From a virus, in IMG/VR virus record IMGVR_UViG_3300021387_000151, positions 1 to 42,851 of that record: a DNA stretch of 42,851 nt; one strand, 5' to 3'. Shown here piece by piece: positions 8,915-29,299 of the stretch (the first letter of the stretch is position 1; each line of letters begins with the position of its first letter). Under the pieces are notes generated by a model. That model was given only the letters and a program-made list of their open reading frames with translations, was not told the DNA's origin and did no database searches. The translations under genes and the position numbers were made by a program.

Positions 8915-11900
8915 CTAGACCAGCTCGCTCACGAGGGCTTCGATAAGCTCCTTGGCGCGGTCGTTGCCGCGAATGGTGGAGCCGTCGATATTCAGGGTGT
9001 AGTTGTTGACCACCTGCGCGGACACGCCGCCGCCCACCTGCTTCATCTGCTCGGCGATAGTGCGAGCGAACGGGCGCGAGTACTTGCGGTTGGTCAACGG
9101 GACGATAGCTTCTGCTCCAGCTTCGCCGACTATATCCAGCGGCACGCCAGCCCCAGGACGGTTCGCAATAGCGCCGTTGGCGTGGTATCGCATCATCACG
9201 CCGCCTGCCGCGTGGGGTCGAATACCGCCTGCGGCGTTGTTGTACTTCGAAATAATCTGATTCACAAACGTGGTGACGCTTCTGGGGATGCTGCTTAGCG
9301 CGCTTGTGAAGGTGTTGATAGCACTTGTATCAGCTGACGCGGAAATATGGGTGTTGTGGCTTTTCGGAATCCTATTGACCGATTGCGTAAATCTGTCCGA
9401 TTCGCGCGTGCCGCTACCGTCAACGACGTTACCGTTAGCCATGTGGTTAGTTGTTTTGCCACTACGCTTGTTTTCCGTGTCTTGGTATTTCTTAGATTGC
9501 TTCTCGGCAGAACCATCGGAAACATTGCCGGTCGAAGTGGCGGTGGTGCTCTTCGGAATAAGGGTGGAGCCGTTCCACGTCCACACGTTGCCCTGTGCGT
9601 CAGTCAGTGACGTATCATCGGCAATTGCATTGCCCTTTAGATCAACAAGCGTGGAGCCATTCCATACGGCAACATTGCCCTGAGCGTCCTTCAGCTGTAG
9701 GTCATTGATGCTGATATTTGCATCCTTGTTAACAATTGGCGCATTGTTGTACCCGTTGATAAGACCAATAAGAGTATCAATATCTCCACCGCAAGAATTG
9801 ACCATCGCCTTAAAGCTGTTCTTGCTGATGTTGCTCATTTGCTCCGAGGTAATACCGGCCTGCTGCATCTTAACAGCAAGGTCAGCGATATTGATGCCAG
9901 CGGAATCAAGCGAATTTCTCACACCATTGCCCATTGTGGAAATGGAGGATGCGATCTTACCAGCCATGTCAGCGGACGATTCGTCAAGACCAGCCGCGAG
10001 CGCCGCCGCGCGGGTGCTAAAGTAATCTGCCTTTTCCGCTGCGGACGTAAAGTCGCCGCTAATCTCATCAAGCTCGCACTGAGCATCTTCGAGAGCTTGA
10101 CCCGTCTTTGTGACTTCGCCTTTGAGCTGACCCCACTTCTTGGTGTACTCATTGGTGGTCTTGCTCGTCATGGCCTTGTCGATTTGCTCTTTATGCTTCT
10201 TGTAGTACTCGGTGGACTCGCTGATGGCGGCAGTATTTGCTTTCTGGGCTTCGGTCACTTTCGCCTGAGCGATTTCCAGCTTGCCCTCGGCTTCGATTTC
10301 CTGTTGGAGATACTTAGACGCTGCATTGGAAAGCGCCTTCATCTCGGCGTTGCGCTTCCATGCGGCTGCGTTCTTATCGATCTCATCGGTGCTCTTGGAC
10401 AGCTCGCCAGTGACGGCATTGGTGATGCTTACGGAATCGCCAGTGATTTCGTTATAGCCCTTTACCGCTTCGCCGAGACGGTACTGCTCGGTGGCGCTAA
10501 GGCTCGATTTCTTAGAAAGGTCATCAATCACGCCAACGTAATTATCAAGCGTGGCGCTATCGGTGCTTACCTTGGTGAACGTCTCGCCGATGGACTCGTT
10601 GAGGTCAATTAGTTTTTGCGTTGTCTCCTCAGCGTTTACAGACACATCGCCGATAGAATCGCCCAGACCGTCTGCACTTCGGGCGGCATTGTCCATGATG
10701 GAGCTGCCCGTTTGCATTGCCTTGCTCATTTTTTCCGCGTGCTCTTTGGCTTTTTGAGCCTGAGCGATAAAGTCACCGACAACGGCACCGATTGCGGTAA
10801 CTGCCGCCGCAAACGCGAGCTGTGGGCCAATAGAGGTCGCAAGACCGATGGCAAAGTTCTTAAAGCCAGTTGCGGCGTTTTTCACGCCGCTTCCGAGCGT
10901 CTTCAAGGCGCCGCCGCTTTGCTTTGCCGCGTCTGCCTGCTTCTTTAGCGCGTTGGCGGAATCGAGAACGCTAGTATTGGTCTTGTTGTTCGCGTCTGCA
11001 ATTTCCTTGGCAACCTTGGCGGTCTCCTTGGTGCTGCCGCTCCACTCGTCCACCATCTTGCCGTAGGTATCCCGGGCCTTGGTCGTAACGTCGATTTCGT
11101 CCTTGATTGACTTGACGCTATCGGCTGATGCCTTGGCTGCTCTATTCGCTGCGTCGGCTTTCGCTTTCAGCGTGGAAGCGTACTCGGTTGCCGCGGCCTT
11201 GCCCTCTTCATCTGCCGATGCCGCGAGCTTGGCTGCTTCTTTATATTTGTCAACGGCGGTCTTTGCCTTATCAGCAGCCGCTGTGCTTTTTGCTACAGCT
11301 GTGGCGTACTTGCCCTCTAGATCGACTACTTTCTGCGAAGTCTGGTAGTAGCCCTGCCATGCGGCAACATAGTTGTCGGCTCCACCAGCGGCCTTTGCGG
11401 CGGCGTTGCCAGCGATACCCATCTTATCGGCAAGCAAATTGGCAGACGCATATGCGCGCATTTGAGCGCCATCGGTGGTAACGAGCGCGTCTTTCCAAAC
11501 GCCAAAGTCCTGAGCGCCCTTGCCGATTGCCGTTATTGCGCTACCGACACCCTTCTCAATCTTACCAAACACGGTAAGCACGGGGCCAGCCGCCGCCGCG
11601 ATACCGACCATAGCCAGAACGAACTGCTGCTGTCCCGTATCCATCTTGGAGAAAGCGTCGGCAAGGTCGCCCACGCCCTGAATGAGCGGATCGCACGCTT
11701 CGAGCGCGGAAATAACGGCGTTGACTAGCGGCCTGCCGATGGAGATAGCAATGGAGTCAACCTTGTTCTTCAATACCTGTAGACGCGATGCCAAGCTCTC
11801 GTTTCGCTGGTCAACCTCGTTTTGGAGCGCTGTGTTCTCGCTCCACGCGGTGTTGGCACGGTCTACCGAATTGCGCAGCAAATCGCCAGCGTTGGCAAGT

Positions 11901-19908: not shown

Positions 19909-21405
19909 CTACAGGTCGATAGTCCAGACGTTGGGCGATTCTTCCTCGTTGTTGTCGTAGGCCCACATAGCCATTGCCGCAGCTACCGCTGCGTCGATAC
20001 GCTTTGACCCTTGCCCGTGCTTCACGGACGTGAGCCTGCGCCCGTATGCCTTTGATTCGCTAGATACGGCGTTGATGCAATGCGCCGCCAAGATGGGCGT
20101 ATCGCCAAGCGATGCTATATGCGTGGATACTGCACGCGCCAAAAGCTCTGACGCGGGGCACATGATGGACGGCGTTTGCGGCACTTGCGATAGGTCGAAG
20201 TCGTAAGTTCGCTCTAGCCAGTTGGATAGGAACTGCATACGCGCGGGGTCGGCGCATATGAATGGAGCGCCGGGCTTTCTCGCCAGCTCTAGCAACACGT
20301 CTGCAACGGCGGTCAGATCGTAGACGGAACTCCCCTTCTCGGGCTTCTCCCAGCACCATTCGGCATATGCCCACCGTTCGTTTTGGCGTTGAGCCGCTAC
20401 GATTGCCAACGTATCGCCGCGAACGGCACCGTCCAGACCAACGCAAAACCATTGGTTCCAGTCGATTTCAAGCCGTTCCGTTTTCTGGCACGCTGTCACG
20501 TCCCTGCGCTTCATGAACGGTTCTTCCACCTCGTCCATAGGCGTACGGTTGAGGTAGTAGCGAACAAAGCCGGGGCCGGGCGTTCCGTCCTCCAGTTTGT
20601 CGGATTCGTACTGCTCTTCCAGCTCCTCCATCGTGATACGCCCAGCTGCGGTAATCTTCTTCCAAACCCTGCGGTCGGCTGGGTTGTCTTGGTCTGTGAT
20701 ACCGAGCCAGCACACGTAGGCGTGCTTATCGCGCTTCAACTTCTGATAGAGCTTGAACAGGAAACCGTCACGGCTGCTGCCTGCGGTCGTGATACCGATA
20801 GTAAGGGCGTTCCACACCTTAGCCTGACCGGACGTGCCTGCTTTCCAAACAGCATCATCGCGCCAGACGTGAATCTCATCGCCGATGAGAACGTGGAAAT
20901 GCTTACCCTGCAACGCCGCTTCCTTGTAGGGGTAGACGTGTATCTCCTGCCCCGTCTGTTCGTTGCGAATAACGTCCTTGTAGACCTTCCACTGTGCGCT
21001 GAGTGTTGGGTTCGCCTTGATGATGGTTGCGATATAGCCCTTGACCATGGCGGTATTTTCCTTGGAGTCTGCAACGATACCGTATTGACCGTTCGGTATA
21101 GCGTCCATGGTTGCAACGGTCAGAACCAAGCACGCCGCCAGCTGCGACTTGCCGAACGCGCGGTGAACGCCAATAAGGGCACGTCTATACTGTCTGCGAA
21201 ACTTGCCCGTCTTCTTGTCAATCTCGCCCGTTCCGAACAAGGGCCGCCAGATATATTTCATAAGCCATTCAGTGACCTTGTACGGGCAACCGCATAACTC
21301 GGATTCGCCAGCATACGTGAGGAACGCTTCCGCGAAAACGCGCGTGCGCTCCACTTGGAACTCCCCCGCCTTGCTCAGCTTCTTAAACGGTGTGTGGTAA
21401 CTCAC
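19909..21405 (-). CDS. terL: Terminase large subunit
   Basis: 498 aa. GTG start overlapping the terS stop (GTGA). ATPase region HRAFGKSQLAACLVL...LIGDEIH, and a nuclease half with GLDGA. Confidence 0.9.
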   Translation of the reverse strand: MSYHTPFKKLSKAGEFQVERTRVFAEAFLTYAGESELCGCPYKVTEWLMKYIWRPLFGTGEIDKKTGKFRRQYRRALIGVHRAFGKSQLAACLVLTVATMDAIPNGQYGIVADSKENTAMVKGYIATIIKANPTLSAQWKVYKDVIRNEQTGQEIHVYPYKEAALQGKHFHVLIGDEIHVWRDDAVWKAGTSGQAKVWNALTIGITTAGSSRDGFLFKLYQKLKRDKHAYVCWLGITDQDNPADRRVWKKITAAGRITMEELEEQYESDKLEDGTPGPGFVRYYLNRTPMDEVEEPFMKRRDVTACQKTERLEIDWNQWFCVGLDGAVRGDTLAIVAAQRQNERWAYAEWCWEKPEKGSSVYDLTAVADVLLELARKPGAPFICADPARMQFLSNWLERTYDFDLSQVPQTPSIMCPASELLARAVSTHIASLGDTPILAAHCINAVSSESKAYGRRLTSVKHGQGSKRIDAAVAAAMAMWAYDNNEEESPNVWTIDL

Positions 21406-21899
21406 ATTCCACCGCCTAGCGCCGCGTCAATCTGCTTTGCGATATTCAGCTGAACGTTCGCGCTCATGCCCTGCGTCAAGCCCAACCTAGCGCGAGCCAT
21501 AGGAGACAAACCCAAATCCTGCTCCAGCTTCATGGCCGTTTTCATCGCGTTGTCGCGAATCTTTAGGTACGGGTTCTCCTTGATGCGGATGCCGCCGAAA
21601 GCGTCCTCTTCCTCTACCGTGAGGTGCATGGTGCCGTCCTCGTCCATCAAGTGCCTTTGGCTCTCATAGACCATGGCGATGTTGAACACGTACTGCTCAA
21701 TCAGCGGGGAATCGGACGCGCGAAAACTTATGCCAGACCCAACTGTGTTGTCCCATATATCGCTCAGAATCGGCGTTTTCGACACGCTCTCGGGCTTTAC
21801 CAGCGCCCCGTCCTCCACTGTCACGGCGGTAGTGGTGGAAATATCGGCGGTGCTAGACCCGCGCCTTACCGCGAGCGCGTCGGGCTTACGTCCCCTCAC
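21402..21899 (-). CDS. terS: Terminase small subunit, P27 family
   Basis: 165 aa. The N-terminus (M)RGRKPDALAV and overall length are typical of P27-type small terminases. Translationally coupled to terL. Confidence 0.75.
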   Translation of the reverse strand: MRGRKPDALAVRRGSSTADISTTTAVTVEDGALVKPESVSKTPILSDIWDNTVGSGISFRASDSPLIEQYVFNIAMVYESQRHLMDEDGTMHLTVEEEDAFGGIRIKENPYLKIRDNAMKTAMKLEQDLGLSPMARARLGLTQGMSANVQLNIAKQIDAALGGGM

Positions 21900-22246
21900 A
21901 AGCCCACCTCCCTAAGCAGGCCCGCGATGCCGCGCGACAGCTCGGAACACATCGGACGGTACTTAATCGGTGCTGCCGTGGATGCCACATCGAAAAACGC
22001 GCCCATACCGCGCAATTCCACCGTGTTTCGCTCCACTGCTTTAGCCGAAACACATCCGCTAGCGGGAATACGGCTGATAGGCTCCATCTGCTCTAGGCAC
22101 TCGGGGGTGCTTCCGCTCTCACCCACGTACACGCCTTTATTTCTTTTTCTAAATGCGTTTTTCCTGCAATTATCCGAACAATATCGGCTTGTATTGCGTC
22201 TTGCGGCGTATTTTCTGCCGCAATATTCGCACGTTCTTACTATCAA
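21896..22246 (-). CDS. Zinc-ribbon protein, first gene of the late operon
   Basis: TTG start with GGAGGTG 5 nt upstream. Motif CEYCGRKYAARRNTSRYCSDNCRKNAFRKR. Confidence 0.6.
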   Translation of the reverse strand: MIVRTCEYCGRKYAARRNTSRYCSDNCRKNAFRKRNKGVYVGESGSTPECLEQMEPISRIPASGCVSAKAVERNTVELRGMGAFFDVASTAAPIKYRPMCSELSRGIAGLLREVGL

Positions 22247-22394
22247 AATCGCACCTCCGTAATCGGTGCGAAAGATAGGTTGGCGTTCCCCCGTTAGCGT
22301 CGCATGGAACGCTAAATCGCTATTCCAATTTCGTGCGCATAAAAAAATGAAGGGGCCGCGCTGGGTAGCCGTTGGTGGTGTCGTGATTTGACCC

Positions 22395-22620
22395 TCCCCA
22401 CTACCCCGCGTGCGGGGGCGCGCGCTCGCGTGGGCGCAGGTGCGCGCGTATGTGCTGGCATGGGCGCGTGCGTGTGTGCGTGGGCAGGCGCGTACGTGGG
22501 CAGGCGTGCGCGTTTGCGCATGGGGATACGCGCGTTAGGTCGTGGGGATAGGTGCGATCGTGTAGGCGCTCGCGTCTCGTCCTGGTATCCGCGTTCGCGC
22601 TCACGGTCGTACGCTGCGCG
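22395..22620. repeat. GC-rich degenerate repeat tract with alternating purine-pyrimidine runs
   Basis: CGTGGGCAGGCG is perfect at 22479..22490 and 22495..22506. Relatives occur at 22429, 22459, 22519 (CATGGGGATACG) and 22541 (CGTGGGGATAGG). There are GCGCGC/GTGCGTGTGTGCG runs and a 14-bp palindrome at 22404..22417. All frames give only Ala/Arg/His junk. Confidence 0.7.
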
Positions 22621-22629
22621 GCGTGGCTC

Positions 22630-22701
22630 AAAAGTTTTTTATGAGTGTTGACCTGCGGTTTTGTTGGGTTCTGAAAAGTTTTTTGAAAATTGTTGTTGAC
22701 A
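22630..22701 (+). promoter_or_regulatory. AT-rich promoter/operator candidate for the plus-strand island
   Basis: AAAAGTTTTTT occurs at 22630..22640 and 22674..22684, each followed by a TTGAC(C/A) -35-like hexamer (22648, 22696). No convincing -10 was found. Confidence 0.35.
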
Positions 22702-22788
22702 TGCCATCGCATACGGTGGCAGACTGTAGCCACACAACGAGCCACCGCAACAGGTGGCAAACCAACCACCACGGAAGGATGTGAAGAC

Positions 22789-23439
22789 ATGAGCACACGA
22801 GCAGAGCGCAGCGCATCCAACCGCGCCGCACATGCACTCAAGCGCGCAAAGCTTGAAGAGCAGTGGGCGCTCGCCGCCGCCGAAAAGCAGGCAGATCGCA
22901 AGCGCCGCCGCGATGAGAACCGCGCGGCATGGTGGGCGCGCTATGGCATGGCAACGCCTGGTATCGAGCAGTACGAGCAGGCCGAGCAGGTCGAGCATAG
23001 CGACCACGTGACCATGCCCGAGGTAACCGAGGATAGTTCCATCGTTGCAGCGAGCGCCACGAGGTCAAGGGGCGAGGCCGGTCATTGGTTTGTCGAGATG
23101 AACGGCGTCAAGTGCGGCACTATCTCGTGGAGCAACACGCCGCTCGTCTACGAAACGCCCGACGGCGAGAGCCTGCCATGCGAGACCGAGGAGCAGGCGC
23201 GAGGCCTTGCAGAGCTGTACGCGATGGATTACGCCGAGCGTTCGAGCGCGATAGCAAAGTTCAAGCCGGGCATGATGTTTGGCGACCGAGAGATCGTGAG
23301 CGTCGCGGCAAAATCCGTCACAGTGCGCCGCATTGGCTACGCCGACAGCGTCAAGCGCTACAAGATCAAGCGCAACAGCGAGCGCGGCGATTATATCTCC
23401 ACCAACATTGGCGAGCTTTACGCGAGCCGAGCGGCATAG
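22789..23439 (+). CDS. Hypothetical protein (basic coiled-coil N-terminus)
   Basis: Start set at MSTRAERS (GGAAGGA plus 9 nt). 216 aa. First gene of the opposite-strand island. Confidence 0.65.
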   Translation: MSTRAERSASNRAAHALKRAKLEEQWALAAAEKQADRKRRRDENRAAWWARYGMATPGIEQYEQAEQVEHSDHVTMPEVTEDSSIVAASATRSRGEAGHWFVEMNGVKCGTISWSNTPLVYETPDGESLPCETEEQARGLAELYAMDYAERSSAIAKFKPGMMFGDREIVSVAAKSVTVRRIGYADSVKRYKIKRNSERGDYISTNIGELYASRAA

Positions 23440-23456
23440 CGACGAATCCGACACAC

Positions 23457-23495
23457 ATAAAAACGCCCGGCGCAAGTACCACCAAAGCGCCGGGC
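23457..23495 (-). terminator. Minus-oriented stem-loop/terminator inside the plus-strand island
   Basis: Perfect 9-bp stem GCCCGGCGC / GCGCCGGGC (23465..23473, 23487..23495). On the minus strand it is followed by GTTTTTAT, and there is no U-tract on the plus strand. Confidence 0.45.
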
Positions 23496-23524
23496 ATAGG
23501 TCAAAGTGAGAAAGGACTAAGACC

Positions 23525-23929
23525 ATGAAGAAGATTAACACACATGAGCTGTATTTGGCAGTGTTGAACGACTGCAACGAGAAGCCTGAGCGCTCCGCCT
23601 GGGGTCGTGGCGTACAGACTTACGCAGTCGAGATCGCGGAAACGCTAGCAGACCAGACGCGCGAGGTCGAGCCGACAAGAGCAGCAATTGAGCACATCGC
23701 ATTGAATGGTGCGCGCGATTGGACTCAATACAGCTGGGGCGGTTGCTCGCTTATCTATGACGAGGATATTGCAAAGTCGCTTTGCCCTCCGTCCACGCTC
23801 AAGCGCAAGCACAACGGAGCGCTGCCGCCGAACAGCTGTGAGGAATGGCTCGATGTGCAAGCCAGGGCGCTAATGCAGGCCTGCCGCCGCGTCTGCCGTA
23901 TTGCCAAGGCGCTTAAGGTGGTGGCCTAA
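23525..23929 (+). CDS. Hypothetical protein
   Basis: 134 aa with SD GAGAAAGGA. Sequence features LNGARDWTQYSWGGCSLIYDEDIA...WLDVQARALMQA. No family assigned. Confidence 0.65.
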   Translation: MKKINTHELYLAVLNDCNEKPERSAWGRGVQTYAVEIAETLADQTREVEPTRAAIEHIALNGARDWTQYSWGGCSLIYDEDIAKSLCPPSTLKRKHNGALPPNSCEEWLDVQARALMQACRRVCRIAKALKVVA

Positions 23930-24064
23930 ATGGGCGTAGATCTGTTCGATATTGTGAACTATCCCGTCTGGAAGCTATCGCTGCTAGTCATAGGAGCAAT
24001 GGCACTTAGCTACGTGTACGGCTGGTTTATGGCATACGAGAAGTTTAACGAGAGGAAGCATTAG
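23930..24064 (+). CDS. Small membrane protein (44 aa, not in the ORF track)
   Basis: The ATG is adjacent to the upstream TAA. Translation MGVDLFDIVNYPVWKLSLLVIGAMALSYVYGWFMAYEKFNERKH (one TM). The stop is 2 nt before the next ATG. Confidence 0.5.
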   Translation: MGVDLFDIVNYPVWKLSLLVIGAMALSYVYGWFMAYEKFNERKH

Positions 24065-24066
24065 AC

Positions 24067-24321
24067 ATGGGAAACATCATCGTTGAGGACGAGAGCGAAA
24101 AGGTCATTTACTACGCCAGGAACATGTTCGATTTGGTCGATAGCTTGACCGATAACGGATTGACCGCCGCCGAGCTTGAAGCACTGGCGTTTGTCGTGGC
24201 GGCAACACATGACACGCAATACGACTACGCATCTAGGCATTTGAGCAGGCTTCTAGGCTATAACGTCAAGATTTGGGTTGGGTTTATATCAGACCAGCCA
24301 TACATCAATGAGCTGAGCTAG
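24067..24321 (+). CDS. Small acidic hypothetical protein
   Basis: 84 aa, D/E-rich, tightly packed in the island operon. Confidence 0.6.
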   Translation: MGNIIVEDESEKVIYYARNMFDLVDSLTDNGLTAAELEALAFVVAATHDTQYDYASRHLSRLLGYNVKIWVGFISDQPYINELS

Positions 24322-24334
24322 ACGATCCGGCACA

Positions 24335-24359
24335 CTGCCAACTTGTAACGAGTTGGCAG
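24335..24359 (+). other. Perfect 9-bp hairpin in the island intergenic gap
   Basis: CTGCCAACT-TGTAACG-AGTTGGCAG with no U-tract. GTAACGAG occurs again at 24388. Confidence 0.5.
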
Positions 24360-24445
24360 ACTGCCGCACCGTTTACCGAAGCGGAGCGTAACGAGAAGCG
24401 CGAACGGATAAACTAGAGCCATTCGCAAACGAGAAAGGACAGACC

Positions 24446-24889
24446 ATGACCGCCAACAAAGAACTCTGCTTTACCGTTTTCGAACGCGAGATTACGACTT
24501 GCATGGAGGGCGACCGCGAGGAATCGCACGGCTGGGACTGCGGGGACGAGCTGAACGTAAGCGATACAGACTTCGAGGGCGTTGTGTCCACCGTCCGCAA
24601 ATGGGCCGCGGAGGACAGCGTAGAGGTATGCCGCACGCGCCACGGCATCGGATCCATGACGCGCTCAGTCTATGACGTATGCGCATGGTGCGAAGACGGC
24701 AAAGGCGGTTTCATGACCTGCGATCTGGACGGGAACAGGAGCGAGGATAGCGTGTATGTGCTTGATGTTCTCGACTTGCACCCCGAGTACCGCGAAGCAT
24801 GGGACAAGGCGAAGCATGATTATTACAAGTTCCTCGATTACGAGGGCGAGACGTTCGGACAGGTCGCGGATTATATCGAGGGCGAGTAG
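24446..24889 (+). CDS. Strongly acidic hypothetical protein
   Basis: 147 aa with SD GAGAAAGGA. It has many D/E residues and several Cys pairs (CMEGD, DCGDE, CAWCEDG). Confidence 0.65.
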   Translation: MTANKELCFTVFEREITTCMEGDREESHGWDCGDELNVSDTDFEGVVSTVRKWAAEDSVEVCRTRHGIGSMTRSVYDVCAWCEDGKGGFMTCDLDGNRSEDSVYVLDVLDLHPEYREAWDKAKHDYYKFLDYEGETFGQVADYIEGE

Positions 24890-24891
24890 CC

Positions 24892-25227
24892 ATGACCACA
24901 CCAAAAGGCGTGGCACGCTACACAGACCTAGAAGGCACACCGTTTGAGATATTCGAGGTGCCCGACAAGGCTGACCAGTCGCTTGTGGTTACCGACCCAT
25001 CCACCCATCCGTTCGGGTTCCTGCTTCAACACAAGCAGTTCGAGAACCCAGAACTCACGTGGAGCGGTGAGATTGAGCGCGAGGTTGTAGCCGGACTGCT
25101 GCGCATGGACGAGAACGCCGAAGTCTGGGCCGATGCTTGGGGATGGTGGGCGCTCGACGTTTACCATCGCTGCAAGCGCGAGGGCACGCTACCGGAGCCG
25201 AAGAAGAAGCGTCGCAGGAGCGCATAG
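24892..25227 (+). CDS. Hypothetical protein with basic C-terminal tail
   Basis: 111 aa starting 2 nt after the upstream stop. It ends in PKKKRRRSA. Confidence 0.6.
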   Translation: MTTPKGVARYTDLEGTPFEIFEVPDKADQSLVVTDPSTHPFGFLLQHKQFENPELTWSGEIEREVVAGLLRMDENAEVWADAWGWWALDVYHRCKREGTLPEPKKKRRRSA

Positions 25228-25241
25228 GACGAGAGGGAACC

Positions 25242-25490
25242 ATGGAGAACGAAACAAAACGAGTGAGCCATAGCGAGGTGCTAAAGGCGCTCATGAACGA
25301 CAGCGACAAGACCGCCACGGATATTAGCCGCGCCTTGGGTCTGAATCGCTCTTATGTGACCAACACGGCAGCGCGGAATAACGTTAGGGTCGAGACGCTG
25401 GCGACAATCGCCGCCGCATACGGTTACGATCTGGCGCTGATTGACCGCGAGACGAACGAGACGCGCTATATCATCGAGCCGCCGAAATAG
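25242..25490 (+). CDS. Small HTH (XRE-type) DNA-binding protein, last gene of the island
   Basis: Start set at MENETKR (GAGAGGGAA upstream). HTH segment KTATDISRALGLNRSYVTNTAARNNVRVETLATIAAAYG. Confidence 0.65.
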   Translation: MENETKRVSHSEVLKALMNDSDKTATDISRALGLNRSYVTNTAARNNVRVETLATIAAAYGYDLALIDRETNETRYIIEPPK

Positions 25491-25515
25491 GTACAAGGGA
25501 CGAACGAGAAGCCCG

Positions 25516-25563
25516 AAAAAGAAAAAGCCCCCGTAGCGTAGTGCTGCGGGGGCGATTTTGTTT
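25516..25563. terminator. Bidirectional rho-independent terminator between convergent operons
   Basis: 11-bp stem 25527..25537 / 25543..25553 (one G-U), flanked by GAAAAAGAAAAA on one side and GATTTTGTTTGG on the other. It sits between the island (+) and the early operon (-). Confidence 0.8.
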
Positions 25564-25578
25564 GGCGAACGAGAGACG

Positions 25579-25872
25579 TTATTTAGTGCTGTGGATTAGG
25601 CTGCGCCATGAGTTACGGACTTCGCAGAACTTGGTGTAAAGAATTTTCACCTGCGTTGGGGTCATATCAAGTGCCCAAGATACATCGAGTATGTTCCAAG
25701 GGTCTTGATCTATCCGCTTCATGAGGAGGTAGACCGAACGAATGTAAGAGAAAAACTCGACAGCGCTAATGATAAGCAGCAGCATGATACCGACGATGAT
25801 TGTTGTTACAAGGGCTATGACAACGGAGTTAATAACCAATTTATCCCCTTCCCGCCGCGCGTCTGGCGGCAT
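25579..25872 (-). CDS. Small membrane protein (start uncertain: ATG 25872 or TTG 25839)
   Basis: TM segment VINSVVIALVTTIIVGIMLLLIISAVEFF followed by a soluble tail. GGAAGGGGA precedes the TTG at 25839, just after the HNH stop. The upstream part of track ORF 25579..26148 overlaps the HNH gene in another frame. Confidence 0.55.
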   Translation of the reverse strand: MPPDARREGDKLVINSVVIALVTTIIVGIMLLLIISAVEFFSYIRSVYLLMKRIDQDPWNILDVSWALDMTPTQVKILYTKFCEVRNSWRSLIHSTK

Positions 25873-26239
25873 CAATTCGGTTATGGCACGACACGCAAAG
25901 CAGCACGAGGTTATCCGCGCCGTTCCCTCCACCCTGTGAGAGTGGGCGGATATGATGCACTCCAGCACCGGTAAGTATCCAGGACGAACCGCGACGCTTG
26001 GCGCACACCTTGCCGCACGCCGCGCAGCGCCCGCTCGAGCGCTGTATTGCGATTTGACGGGCTGTCTTGTACTCCTTGCGTGAATACTCGGAACGCCACG
26101 GGTTAGCCTGCTTGCGGGCTTTTTCTTGGCTCTGGGAGCGCTTTCCATGCGAGCGAAAGGAACGAGAGACGCGTTTACAGCGTGGGCACGACGCGCCGGA
26201 GTATGGCTTGCCGCATATGGGGCACATCGAGCTAGGCAT
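25841..26239 (-). CDS. HNH endonuclease
   Basis: HHIRPLSQGGGNGADNLVLLCVSCHNRID plus N-terminal CPICG...CPRC. Start chosen at MPSSMC (ATGCCTAG overlap with the upstream stop). Confidence 0.85.
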   Translation of the reverse strand: MPSSMCPICGKPYSGASCPRCKRVSRSFRSHGKRSQSQEKARKQANPWRSEYSRKEYKTARQIAIQRSSGRCAACGKVCAKRRGSSWILTGAGVHHIRPLSQGGGNGADNLVLLCVSCHNRIDAARRAAGRG

Positions 26240-26555
26240 AGACCCTAGCCGTTCTATATGCGTCCTCCTTGCGGTTGAGCGCTCGAACGTCACGGTAGCA
26301 GTACTGGCAGAAGCCGGTCACGTTGTACGTGTTCCTGCCGCACATGGGACAAACGACAGGCTCGCTCAAGTGTTCATGTCCTAGGCTGGTCTGTTCTTCC
26401 GAGACGCTGAACGAGAAGCCGCTATAGGTCTTCTTGCCGCTGCGGATGTAACGTTTCATCGTGGTCTCGGCGATGCGGTTTGCGCGAGCAGCCGCCGCGA
26501 TGGACGGGTAGGTCACTCCATCGGAGCGCGTGACCTTGTATCCTACGAACTTCAT
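26232..26555 (-). CDS. DNA-binding protein (NUMOD1-like N-terminus plus zinc ribbon), tentative
   Basis: MKFVGYKVTRSDGVTYPSIAAAARANRIAETTMKRYIRSGK plus CPMCG...CQYC. Start 26555 (GGAGG plus 9 nt, ATGA coupling). An alternative ATG at 26600 also has AAGGAGG. Confidence 0.5.
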   Translation of the reverse strand: MKFVGYKVTRSDGVTYPSIAAAARANRIAETTMKRYIRSGKKTYSGFSFSVSEEQTSLGHEHLSEPVVCPMCGRNTYNVTGFCQYCYRDVRALNRKEDAYRTARVYA

Positions 26556-28892: not shown

Positions 28893-29123
28893 TCATTCGT
28901 CAACCTCCACAACTAGATCGCGTACGTCTATAGCCGTCTCTTCGGCAATGGAGAACAGGTTTCTTAGCGAAATGTTCCTACGATCGTTCAGTAGCTCGTT
29001 GAAATACCAAGTAGAGATGCCAAGAGTCTTAGCAAAATCGTCTTGCGTTAGGTCGTGGTCAATCAGATAGTGCTGGATGGCCTTCTTGTTGAGCACGTAG
29101 CTGTGTTTCGTCTTAGCTGTCAT
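28893..29123 (-). CDS. HTH (XRE-type) protein
   Basis: Start set at MTAKTK (AGGAGGG, ATGA coupling). HTH segment LTQDDFAKTLGISTWYFNELLNDRRNISLRNLFSIAE. Confidence 0.65.
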   Translation of the reverse strand: MTAKTKHSYVLNKKAIQHYLIDHDLTQDDFAKTLGISTWYFNELLNDRRNISLRNLFSIAEETAIDVRDLVVEVDE

Positions 29124-29299
29124 TGCACCCTCCTGTTCCATGCTTCGATAGCATCGGTTTTGTCGTCATAAATGGCTGACGAAGAATTGCAGTTCTCGCA
29201 CCAAACGGAATAGCCTTCAAAGCAAAACTCAAAATCTTTTACAACTTCCACATCGGCACCGCAGAAGGGGCAGGGTTTCAGCTTGATTTTGTCGGTCAT
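29120..29299 (-). CDS. Lar-family (restriction alleviation-like) zinc-ribbon protein
   Basis: Start set at MTDKIKLKPCPFCG. Pattern PCPFCG ... VWCENC ... DAIEAWNRR. Confidence 0.65.
   Translation of the reverse strand: MTDKIKLKPCPFCGADVEVVKDFEFCFEGYSVWCENCNSSSAIYDDKTDAIEAWNRRVQ

Follow-up and report, generated by a model that had tools for sequence, protein, structure and literature searches.

Within the 42,851-nucleotide (nt) stretch analysed here (the window), which is IMG/VR virus record IMGVR_UViG_3300021387_000151, seven small genes form an island on the plus strand, and the last of them (g7) encodes a small helix-turn-helix (HTH) protein. Our main finding is that g7 is very probably the dedicated autorepressor of this island, because among related loci it comes in three alleles and each allele is paired with its own palindromes at the same positions of the island promoter. 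The explanation that fits best overall is a negatively autoregulated accessory operon whose early, host-acting cargo serves anti-defence or host takeover, and to that statement as a whole we would give a probability of roughly 0.42.

About 30 related loci were gathered from IMG/VR, GTDB genomes, JGI/ENA metagenomes and Logan, and the operon anatomy, coding status, cargo shuffling and pairing of HTH protein with operator were all computed here. Among these loci, the three g7 alleles differ in their HTH helices and are identical in the C-terminal third. The window carries allele A, which goes with the 18-bp palindrome GCCAyCGCAnnnGGTGGC, present once or twice (twice in most) in the window and in 21 of the 26 A-type loci fetched. 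Some loci in this tally are the same contig fetched twice, and the five that have no motif are either missing the promoter region or rearranged. Allele B (L022, L081 and L089) goes with three palindromes of the form GTCCGwACGGAC, and allele C (L023 and L075) with two of the form AACyCGnnCGGGTT.

Palindrome type tracks the g7 allele without exception, and no motif of another type occurs anywhere in these loci, which are 2-20 kb long. The positions are shared as well: all three types have one palindrome in the spacer between a TTGACA-like -35 hexamer and a CAnAAT-like -10 hexamer, and a further palindrome some 15 nt past the -10. Alleles B and C encode proteins of about 80% identity and have the operator core CCGnnCGG in common, and A is distinct in both protein and operator. 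Across the 42.8-kb window, the A-type operator is found only at the island promoter.

The two sites that switch together, g7 and the promoter palindromes, are 2.5 kb apart, and the intervening genes g1-g6 are 84-95% identical between loci of different type (L022 vs L007). Locus L089 has the B-type cassette ahead of wholly different first genes, so the pairing is not simple linkage. The protein itself (g7, 25242-25490, plus strand, 82 amino acids (aa)) matches the Pfam model PF13443 (HTH_26) with an E-value of 7.5e-5 and 23.3 bits; this is above the curated Pfam cut-off of 22 and places g7 among HTH proteins of the XRE/Cro-C1 type. HTH_31 and HTH_3 fall just under their Pfam cut-offs, and PHROG families annotated as transcriptional repressors match with an E-value of 1.5e-4. 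The idea that the terminal HTH protein is an autoregulator, put forward in the original prediction (an earlier reading of this DNA from its letters), therefore gains in silico support from the pairing of alleles with palindromes.

The proposed promoter lies on the plus strand just ahead of g1. It consists of a proximal A/T tract, AAAAGTTTTTTGAAAAT (22674-22690, UP-element-like, -57 to -41 of the proposed promoter), a -35 hexamer TTGACA (22696-22701) and a weak putative -10 hexamer CAGACT (22720-22725), which was assigned by alignment with relatives, where it lines up with CATAAT, CACAAT or CATGAT. Predicted operator O1, the palindrome GCCATCGCATACGGTGGC (22703-22720), occupies the spacer between the two hexamers, and predicted operator O2, the perfect palindrome GCCACCGCAACAGGTGGC (22741-22758), is in the 5' leader at about +10 to +27 and is also a potential RNA hairpin. 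In the type B and C relatives, the equivalent of the -35 hexamer is TTGCAA or TTGACC. Upstream of all this is a distal A/T element, CTCAAAAGTTTTTT followed by TGTTGACC (22627-22656, plus strand), a direct repeat that makes up the upstream part of the promoter cassette.

The original prediction had noticed near-palindromes here, twice, each followed by TTGAC, and this is exact: AAAAGTTTTTT occurs at 22630 and 22674, each time followed by TGTTGAC, and there are no other exact copies in the window. With one mismatch allowed there are 4 matches vs 0.36 expected by chance, and 0 shuffles reached 4. The further proposal that these are the sites of the HTH protein fails, however. Loci that carry another g7 allele keep the AAAAGTTTTTT sites unaltered, which speaks against a role as g7 operators; the 18-bp GC-rich palindromes switch instead. 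The AAAAGTTTTTT elements look like a UP element: by our own reading, AAAAGTTTTTTGAAAAT presumably matches the E. coli UP consensus AAAWWTWTTTTnnAAAA at 15 of 17 positions, which we treat as a lead only.

The distal element is kept in all three operator types. The TTGAC that follows it varies (TTTAC or TTGGC in relatives) and is therefore probably not a -35 hexamer; the first TTGACC (22649) was rejected in that role, being neither conserved nor accompanied by a -10 partner. In L089, where 1.4 kb of other DNA lies between the cassette and the terS side of the locus, the distal element moves with the operators, so it belongs to the island and not to cos. An AT-rich upstream region, as originally described, is a fair account of the A/T elements, but it leaves out the GC-rich palindromes and the repeat tract (22408-22551) beside them.

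All seven island genes are on the plus strand: g1 (22789-23439, 216 aa), g2 (23525-23929, 134 aa), g3 (23930-24064, 44 aa), g4 (24067-24321, 84 aa), g5 (24446-24889, 147 aa), g6 (24892-25227, 111 aa) and g7. For g1, a TTG start at 22690 was considered, and the ATG with a ribosome-binding site was taken instead. Ribosome-binding sites of the GGAGG/GAAAGGA type precede 7/7 island genes, and an independent gene call on identical metagenome contigs gave the same seven. The ratio of nonsynonymous to synonymous substitution rates (dN/dS) against relatives is 0.01-0.3 across the seven (0.08 for g1, 0.05-0.10 for g6 and 0.01-0.08 for g7), and all seven are therefore real coding genes. The predicted set of seven small plus-strand genes with the HTH gene last is borne out by these three lines of evidence. 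So is the statement that it is the only plus-strand block besides the repressor/integrase pair: AT skew is above 0 only at 23-26 kb and 40-42 kb of the window, and the remaining called genes around the island are all on the minus strand.

The character of the products agrees with the original description too. Both g4 and g5 are acidic, each with an isoelectric point (pI) of 4.32, and both are variable cargo; g5 is Cys-rich and has 35 acidic vs 14 basic residues, for a net charge of about -21. The 44-aa g3 is a single-span membrane peptide, its one hydrophobic span averaging 1.7 on the Kyte-Doolittle scale over 19 residues, and g6 ends in a basic KKKRRR tail. GC content is 0.54-0.58 in the island, compared with 0.50-0.62 across the window, and only g3 and g4 are lower (0.47-0.49).

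Downstream of g7 is an intrinsic terminator that acts on both strands (25516-25563) and is shared with the converging early operon. Its core (25527-25553) consists of a GC stem of 11 bp, and both strands have U-runs. The folding energy is -32.4 kcal/mol (z -4.4) for the plus strand and -25.9 kcal/mol (z -4.1) for the minus strand, so the strong bidirectional terminator that had been predicted is well founded. An Rfam search over 22100-25700 gave no match.

Comparison of the related loci separates the island into constant and exchangeable parts. The constant parts are the promoter cassette, g3, g6, g7 and a 124-nt non-coding junction: g3 is present in every island that reaches its position, and g6 in all islands. 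Elsewhere, genes come and go. For example, g1 is absent from L089 and was not detected in L023, a contig that starts within the island; in L089, four different genes stand where g1 and g2 would be. The g2 slot can be occupied by g2, by a 144-aa gene, or by a 111-aa and a 117-aa gene (g2 is swapped for other genes in L071, L075 and L080). Between g3 and g6 there can be g4, a g4-like gene, g5, genes of 61, 68, 84, 105 or 115 aa, or nothing, and g5 is missing from most relatives.

Islands that extend as far as the junction (24322-24445, plus strand) show 86-100% identity there. A long imperfect hairpin, nearly invariant overall, takes up the 5' 60 nt; its stems are invariant and its loop is variable, with no covariation. 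The junction has no Rfam match and no T-run. The cargo insertion point in the junction is GCACCGTTTAC: L071 and L074 have an additional gene within the junction, with this 11-nt sequence as a direct repeat on either side, and the L089 junction is split in the same way. The junction may serve recombination, RNA processing or protein binding. It was also considered as a g7 site and rejected, the hairpin showing no variation with g7 type.

Two side observations concern individual cargo proteins. L089 encodes, within its island (8992-9501, minus strand), a protein of 170 aa that contains an HPD motif and weakly matches the DnaJ domain (E 4.7e-4, below the Pfam cut-off); it might be co-chaperone-hijacking cargo. 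An (A/V)EVC(R/N)(T/C) motif after an alanine-rich helix recurs in g5 (24446-24889), L066 (4010-4357) and L075 (2086-2340), in proteins that are otherwise dissimilar; the three may be divergent members of one small domain family.

We infer binding, repression, timing and anti-defence function from this arrangement, and the proposed course of events is as follows. The promoter, with its UP-like tract, -35 TTGACA and weak -10 CAGACT, would produce a transcript with a predicted start near 22732, in which a leader of about 57 nt precedes the seven genes, and transcription would end at the bidirectional terminator. The g7 protein, presumably as a dimer, would bind O1 in the spacer and O2 in the leader, and its accumulation would shut the operon down. 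Entry into a cell that has no g7 would then give a burst of expression followed by a low set level, independent of the CI-like repressor. The cargo between promoter and regulator would be exchanged among related phages at conserved junction sequences, and it would act on the host early in infection, as in operons that join anti-CRISPR genes (acr) to an anti-CRISPR-associated regulator gene (aca).

The products themselves are small and unassignable, as originally stated: searches of g1-g7 against Pfam, PHROGs, NCBIfam and PADLOC gave the g7 HTH as the sole match. Ten alternative cargo proteins had no match in Pfam or PHROGs, and PDB sequences gave nothing meaningful for g1 and g2 (as profiles) or for g4, g5, g6 and g7; TPR-like PDB matches of g5 were discarded as low-complexity noise. 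No match was found by megablast of the island against 50,697 phage records, nor by PADLOC with E-values up to 1 for the seven products and the neighbouring membrane protein. Four of the products (g1, g4, g5 and g6) are clade-restricted orphans. The g1 family has 42 clusters, all Collinsella phage-like; g5 has 13 clusters only, one of them named Collinsella aerofaciens; and g6 has five representatives among 1.84 billion proteins.

An AlphaFold2 model of g1 (predicted local distance difference test (pLDDT) score 70) has a long arginine-rich N-terminal helix, a disordered acidic linker and beta-rich C-terminal domains. The first ~80 residues of g1 (22789-23030) are near invariant, an arginine-rich long helix with two NRAA motifs, and in the proteins P0174 and P0175 this N-terminal module is joined to another C-terminal part of 200 aa with no Pfam match. 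This suggests that the N-terminal part is a reusable targeting or nucleic-acid-binding module. A sliding-clamp-like domain considered for P0174 had no Pfam support and was dropped.

The g2 family is far more widespread than the rest of the cargo. It comprises 1,691 clusters, has no Pfam domain and keeps about 50% identity across Actinomycetota, Bacillota, Bacteroidota, Pseudomonadota, Chloroflexota and bacteria of the candidate phyla radiation, with 25 invariant positions. The g2 model is all-alpha and confident (pLDDT 87). Homologs occur on phages and on further kinds of mobile element, in operons made up of small genes that lack annotation, and tblastn against plasmids found none. For example, the homolog in Eggerthella phage EL753P1 is the third gene of an operon that starts near the right genome end, and others adjoin LPD26 polyvalent-protein domains or the FtsK/primase genes of elements resembling integrative and conjugative elements.

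One g2 homolog, P0109, carries a fused AcrIC5 domain (76.5 bits); its gene has a recombinase gene on one side and a terS-like gene on the other. AcrIC5-like genes were considered as regular neighbours of g2, and this was rejected, the fusion itself being the only instance among 33 loci. As an observation on AcrIC5-like genes in their own right, those on IMG/VR contigs of ~16 kb (L097-L115) are within 100-400 nt of the contig ends; two contigs (L107/L109 and L110/L111) have one at both ends, apparently in terminal inverted repeats of small linear phage genomes.

Taking cargo that is small, acidic, orphan and quickly replaced, we regard anti-defence or host takeover as the best single reading, if a tentative one. 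A number of results weigh against it, and some of them concern the cargo. Neither g1-g6 nor the ten alternative cargo proteins match an anti-CRISPR (Acr), anti-restriction, DNA-mimic or other anti-defence family, on the basis of Pfam (including Acr families such as PF22147), PHROGs and PDB sequences. Structure prediction with Foldseek, which the original prediction had suggested as a route to such a match, did not provide one: the g1 and g2 models match no fold, with nothing below E 0.1 for g1 vs PDB or for g2 vs PDB and BFVD. The conservation of g2 across phyla, at about 50% identity, is far above that of usual Acr proteins, a g2 relative is near 1/33 AcrIC5-like viral loci, and the P0109 fusion is a single case. 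Among 149 neighbours of g2 homologs, ~15 have any Pfam match, in no case to an anti-defence family. It is atypical of acr loci that the membrane peptide (g3) and g6 are constant, and superinfection exclusion fits these two equally well.

Other such results concern regulation. The non-A alleles come from five loci only, so there are few independent switch events. The -10 hexamer is weak, and a consensus scan misses the island promoter. Searches with g7 as a single sequence (phmmer) and as a three-allele profile found no match to an anti-CRISPR-associated (Aca) protein among all PDB sequences, a set that we take to include the solved Aca proteins; the best weak matches are restriction-modification controller proteins (C.Esp1396I-type, E 0.06) and XRE regulators, at E-values of at least 0.02.

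Among the other explanations, an operon of lysogen-benefit genes (a moron operon), expressed from the prophage and giving superinfection exclusion through g3 and its partners, a small prophage defence or some other fitness factor, accounts for much of the same evidence: the island has its own promoter and terminator, independent of CI, and g3 and g6 are in every island that reaches them while other genes vary. Variable cargo between conserved flanks also resembles prophage defence hotspots, and three repressor specificities would be expected where resident and incoming phages interact. We nevertheless consider it unlikely, though well ahead of the remaining candidates, given that no product has a PADLOC match, the products (44-216 aa) have no enzymatic domains, GC content equals that of the phage and no relative is without the island. 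The g2 homologs of EL753P1 point the same way, the stretches examined there having no integrase or repressor annotation, although nearly all genes of this phage are annotated as hypothetical. A repressor of diversified specificity is equally the hallmark of immunity regions, and the island could be a second immunity or regulatory region like immI of P22, with antirepressor-type or other regulators silenced by g7; its separation from the CI/int module and the reuse of the arginine-rich N-terminal module of g1 in P0174 and P0175 suit that idea. It is improbable all the same: no product resembles an Ant, KilA-N or Bro antirepressor in Pfam or PHROGs, g1 is dispensable (absent from L089, not detected in L023), and mostly freely exchangeable cargo would be unusual in a regulatory circuit.

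Position suggests yet another explanation, in which these are housekeeping accessory genes of the phage (for packaging, cos recognition, replication or late-gene control) that happen to be on the other strand near cos. The island lies between HNH and terS, where the cos of HNH-dependent cos phages is expected; it is in all relatives, g6 and g7 are under strong purifying selection, and the basic tail of g6 and the arginine-rich helix of g1 could bind nucleic acid. Yet no product matches an ordinary phage housekeeping family in Pfam or PHROGs; such a match had been named in advance as something that would count against an anti-defence operon. Close relatives, with terL at 96-98% identity, lack most of the genes or have others in their place, the terS/zinc-ribbon module changes type and leaves the island unchanged, and a terminator and a probable repressor of its own insulate the operon; this explanation, too, has a low probability. 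As for chance open reading frames or a decaying remnant, the orphan status of g1, g4, g5 and g6 is what would suggest them, and they are already refuted for practical purposes by the ribosome-binding sites at 7/7 genes, the dN/dS of 0.01-0.3, identical copies in at least 23 contigs, the strand-specific AT skew and the confident g2 model.

The phage that carries the island is a temperate siphophage or prophage. It has minus-strand genes for terL, portal, a ClpP-type protease, an HK97-type capsid and a tail tube, and plus-strand genes for a CI-like HTH+S24 repressor and a tyrosine integrase at 40.5-42.7 kb. Judging by sequence relatives, the host is Collinsella, from the human gut: g1 and g5 have homologs of ~80-85% identity that NCBI/UniRef name Collinsella aerofaciens, and Collinsella metagenome-assembled genomes are the closest genome matches. 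Identical copies of the island are on at least 23 metagenome contigs.

Two minus-strand modules flank the island. On one side is an HNH gene (25841-26293, Pfam E 6e-11), separated from the island terminator by a membrane-protein gene (25579-25869) whose 96-aa, single-span product is encoded in another frame from HNH and whose gene overlaps the HNH 3' end by 29 nt; in relatives this gene is 43-78% identical or missing. On the other side is terS (Terminase_4, 21402-21899), with a zinc-ribbon protein gene (21896-22246) between it and the island. HNH together with terS/terL, and with TerL, portal, protease and capsid downstream, is characteristic of the HNH-dependent cos packaging module (HK97/P27 type), and the HNH-terS spacing is 3.9 kb because the island and two small genes intervene. 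The original statement that the island is inserted between HNH and terS is therefore right about position, but 'inserted' is not supported, because every relative found carries the island (all those with both flanks do) and its GC content matches.

Several features of this neighbourhood are worth recording. The terS gene and the zinc-ribbon gene upstream of it come in two module types, at 57% and 36% identity (window vs L006, L022 and L024); across this swap terL is still 96-98% identical and the adjacent intergenic DNA ~90%, with the left recombination boundary near 22320. A 59-aa early-operon gene (29120-29299, minus strand) has a Lar restriction-alleviation domain (PF14354, a precomputed match), so even without the island the phage can be credited with a recognisable candidate for anti-restriction.

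A GC-rich tract (22408-22551) separates the terS-side genes from the island promoter; it has a periodicity of ~22 nt and a purine/pyrimidine alternation score of 0.83 vs a mean of 0.52. It is kept in most relatives, including those with the other terS/zinc-ribbon module, and gives way to other sequence in L089. A similar alternating tract, of CA/CG type, is present in an unrelated clade of low-GC phages (L009-L014) in the same place, between the terS operon and a g2 homolog. The tract could have a link to cos/pac, or could be Z-DNA-prone. It was considered as a functional partner of g2 and rejected in that role: the tract is present in L071, where g2 is missing, and the majority of g2 loci have no such tract.

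Within the packaged DNA, the place of the island is probably at one end, adjoining cos and reading inward. By analogy with lambda, such an end could enter the cell first. In a larger, joint reading, gut Coriobacteriia phages would use the island, at the first-entering end, as a hotspot where cassettes of new anti-defence genes are exchanged, with a new Aca-like repressor family, a g2 that is a new broad-range anti-defence or Acr-linked protein and a hairpin junction whose 11-nt repeat makes it the recombination site for cassette capture. The repressor would have split into at least three specificities, and resident prophages therefore could not silence incoming relatives. We think the joint reading unlikely as it stands; three repressor specificities in one clade fit any model in which a resident g7 is able to silence an incoming relative.

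Knowledge of how host immunity is handled by phages of Collinsella and other abundant gut Actinomycetota is extremely sparse. The locus offers a clearly delimited, testable unit with three natural repressor variants and their matched operators, along with a catalogue of at least 15 small orphan cargo genes. If the cargo is anti-defence, then the promoter cassette, g3, g6, g7 and the junction hairpin become guilt-by-association probes for gut viromes, and the pan-phylum g2 family becomes a priority target. If it is not, the locus is a clean example of modular repressor-operator co-evolution.

Several known systems resemble the island in part. Restriction-modification controller (C) proteins are, like g7, XRE-type HTH proteins of ~80 aa with palindromes at their own promoter; unlike them, g7 is the last gene and not the first, has no restriction or methylase genes beside it, and matches them in PDB without significance. 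Morons of lambdoid and HK97-like phages (HK97 gp15, lambda bor/lom) share the order of promoter, gene(s) and terminator, the opposite strand and a small membrane protein, and the island does have its own predicted promoter (22627-22758) and a terminator (25527-25553). Unlike morons, it is multi-gene and probably repressor-controlled. Its presence is not sporadic either, since relatives with both flanks all carry it and its content alone varies, and its composition is not atypical, its GC content being like that of the phage. Prophage defence hotspots carry known or candidate defence cargo, of which PADLOC found none here.

Anti-defence islands that enter the cell first (T7 gene 0.3/Ocr, the T5 first-step-transfer region and the leading regions of conjugative plasmids) are similar in being a small orphan cluster with a strong-looking promoter at a probable genome end. 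The AcrIC5-like genes at the ends of ~16-kb contigs and the g2 homolog near the EL753P1 genome end extend this likeness. The positional argument is an analogy with lambda and HK97, the island's place relative to the cos cut being a prediction only.

The closest likeness is to acr-aca operons, such as those with Aca1 (Pseudomonas phage JBD30) and Aca2 (Pectobacterium phage ZF40), which the original prediction had also named. Both consist of small unrelated genes followed by a small HTH gene (g7 is the last of a co-oriented series with short gaps and a terminator after it), both have inverted repeats over the core promoter and leader, with a logic of negative feedback that is predicted for the island, and in both the cargo differs between related elements and the regulator is kept. 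Aca repressors bind inverted repeats in acr promoters, and Aca1 and Aca2 also bind RNA motifs in the 5' untranslated region (PMC13551039); likewise, one of the predicted island operators is in the transcribed leader. Aca repressors also control anti-defence candidates that are not Acr proteins (PMC13551039). What can be carried over from the comparison is the layout, the control logic and the variable content, but not a match to a known Acr, Ocr, ArdA or defence protein: the operon has no verified Acr or Acr homolog (g1-g6 and the 10 alternatives vs Pfam, PHROGs and PDB), and g7 has no sequence match to the solved Aca proteins and, vs PDB sequences, no homology to a described Aca family (Aca1-14). 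The island also differs from acr-aca operons in being seven genes long and always having the membrane peptide and g6, in having three repressor/operator specificities in one phage clade, and in its host, a Coriobacteriia gut anaerobe. Set beside these systems, the island is very probably an HTH-autorepressed accessory operon of a temperate phage, unusual for its constant g3/g6 core, its junction hairpin and its three specificities.

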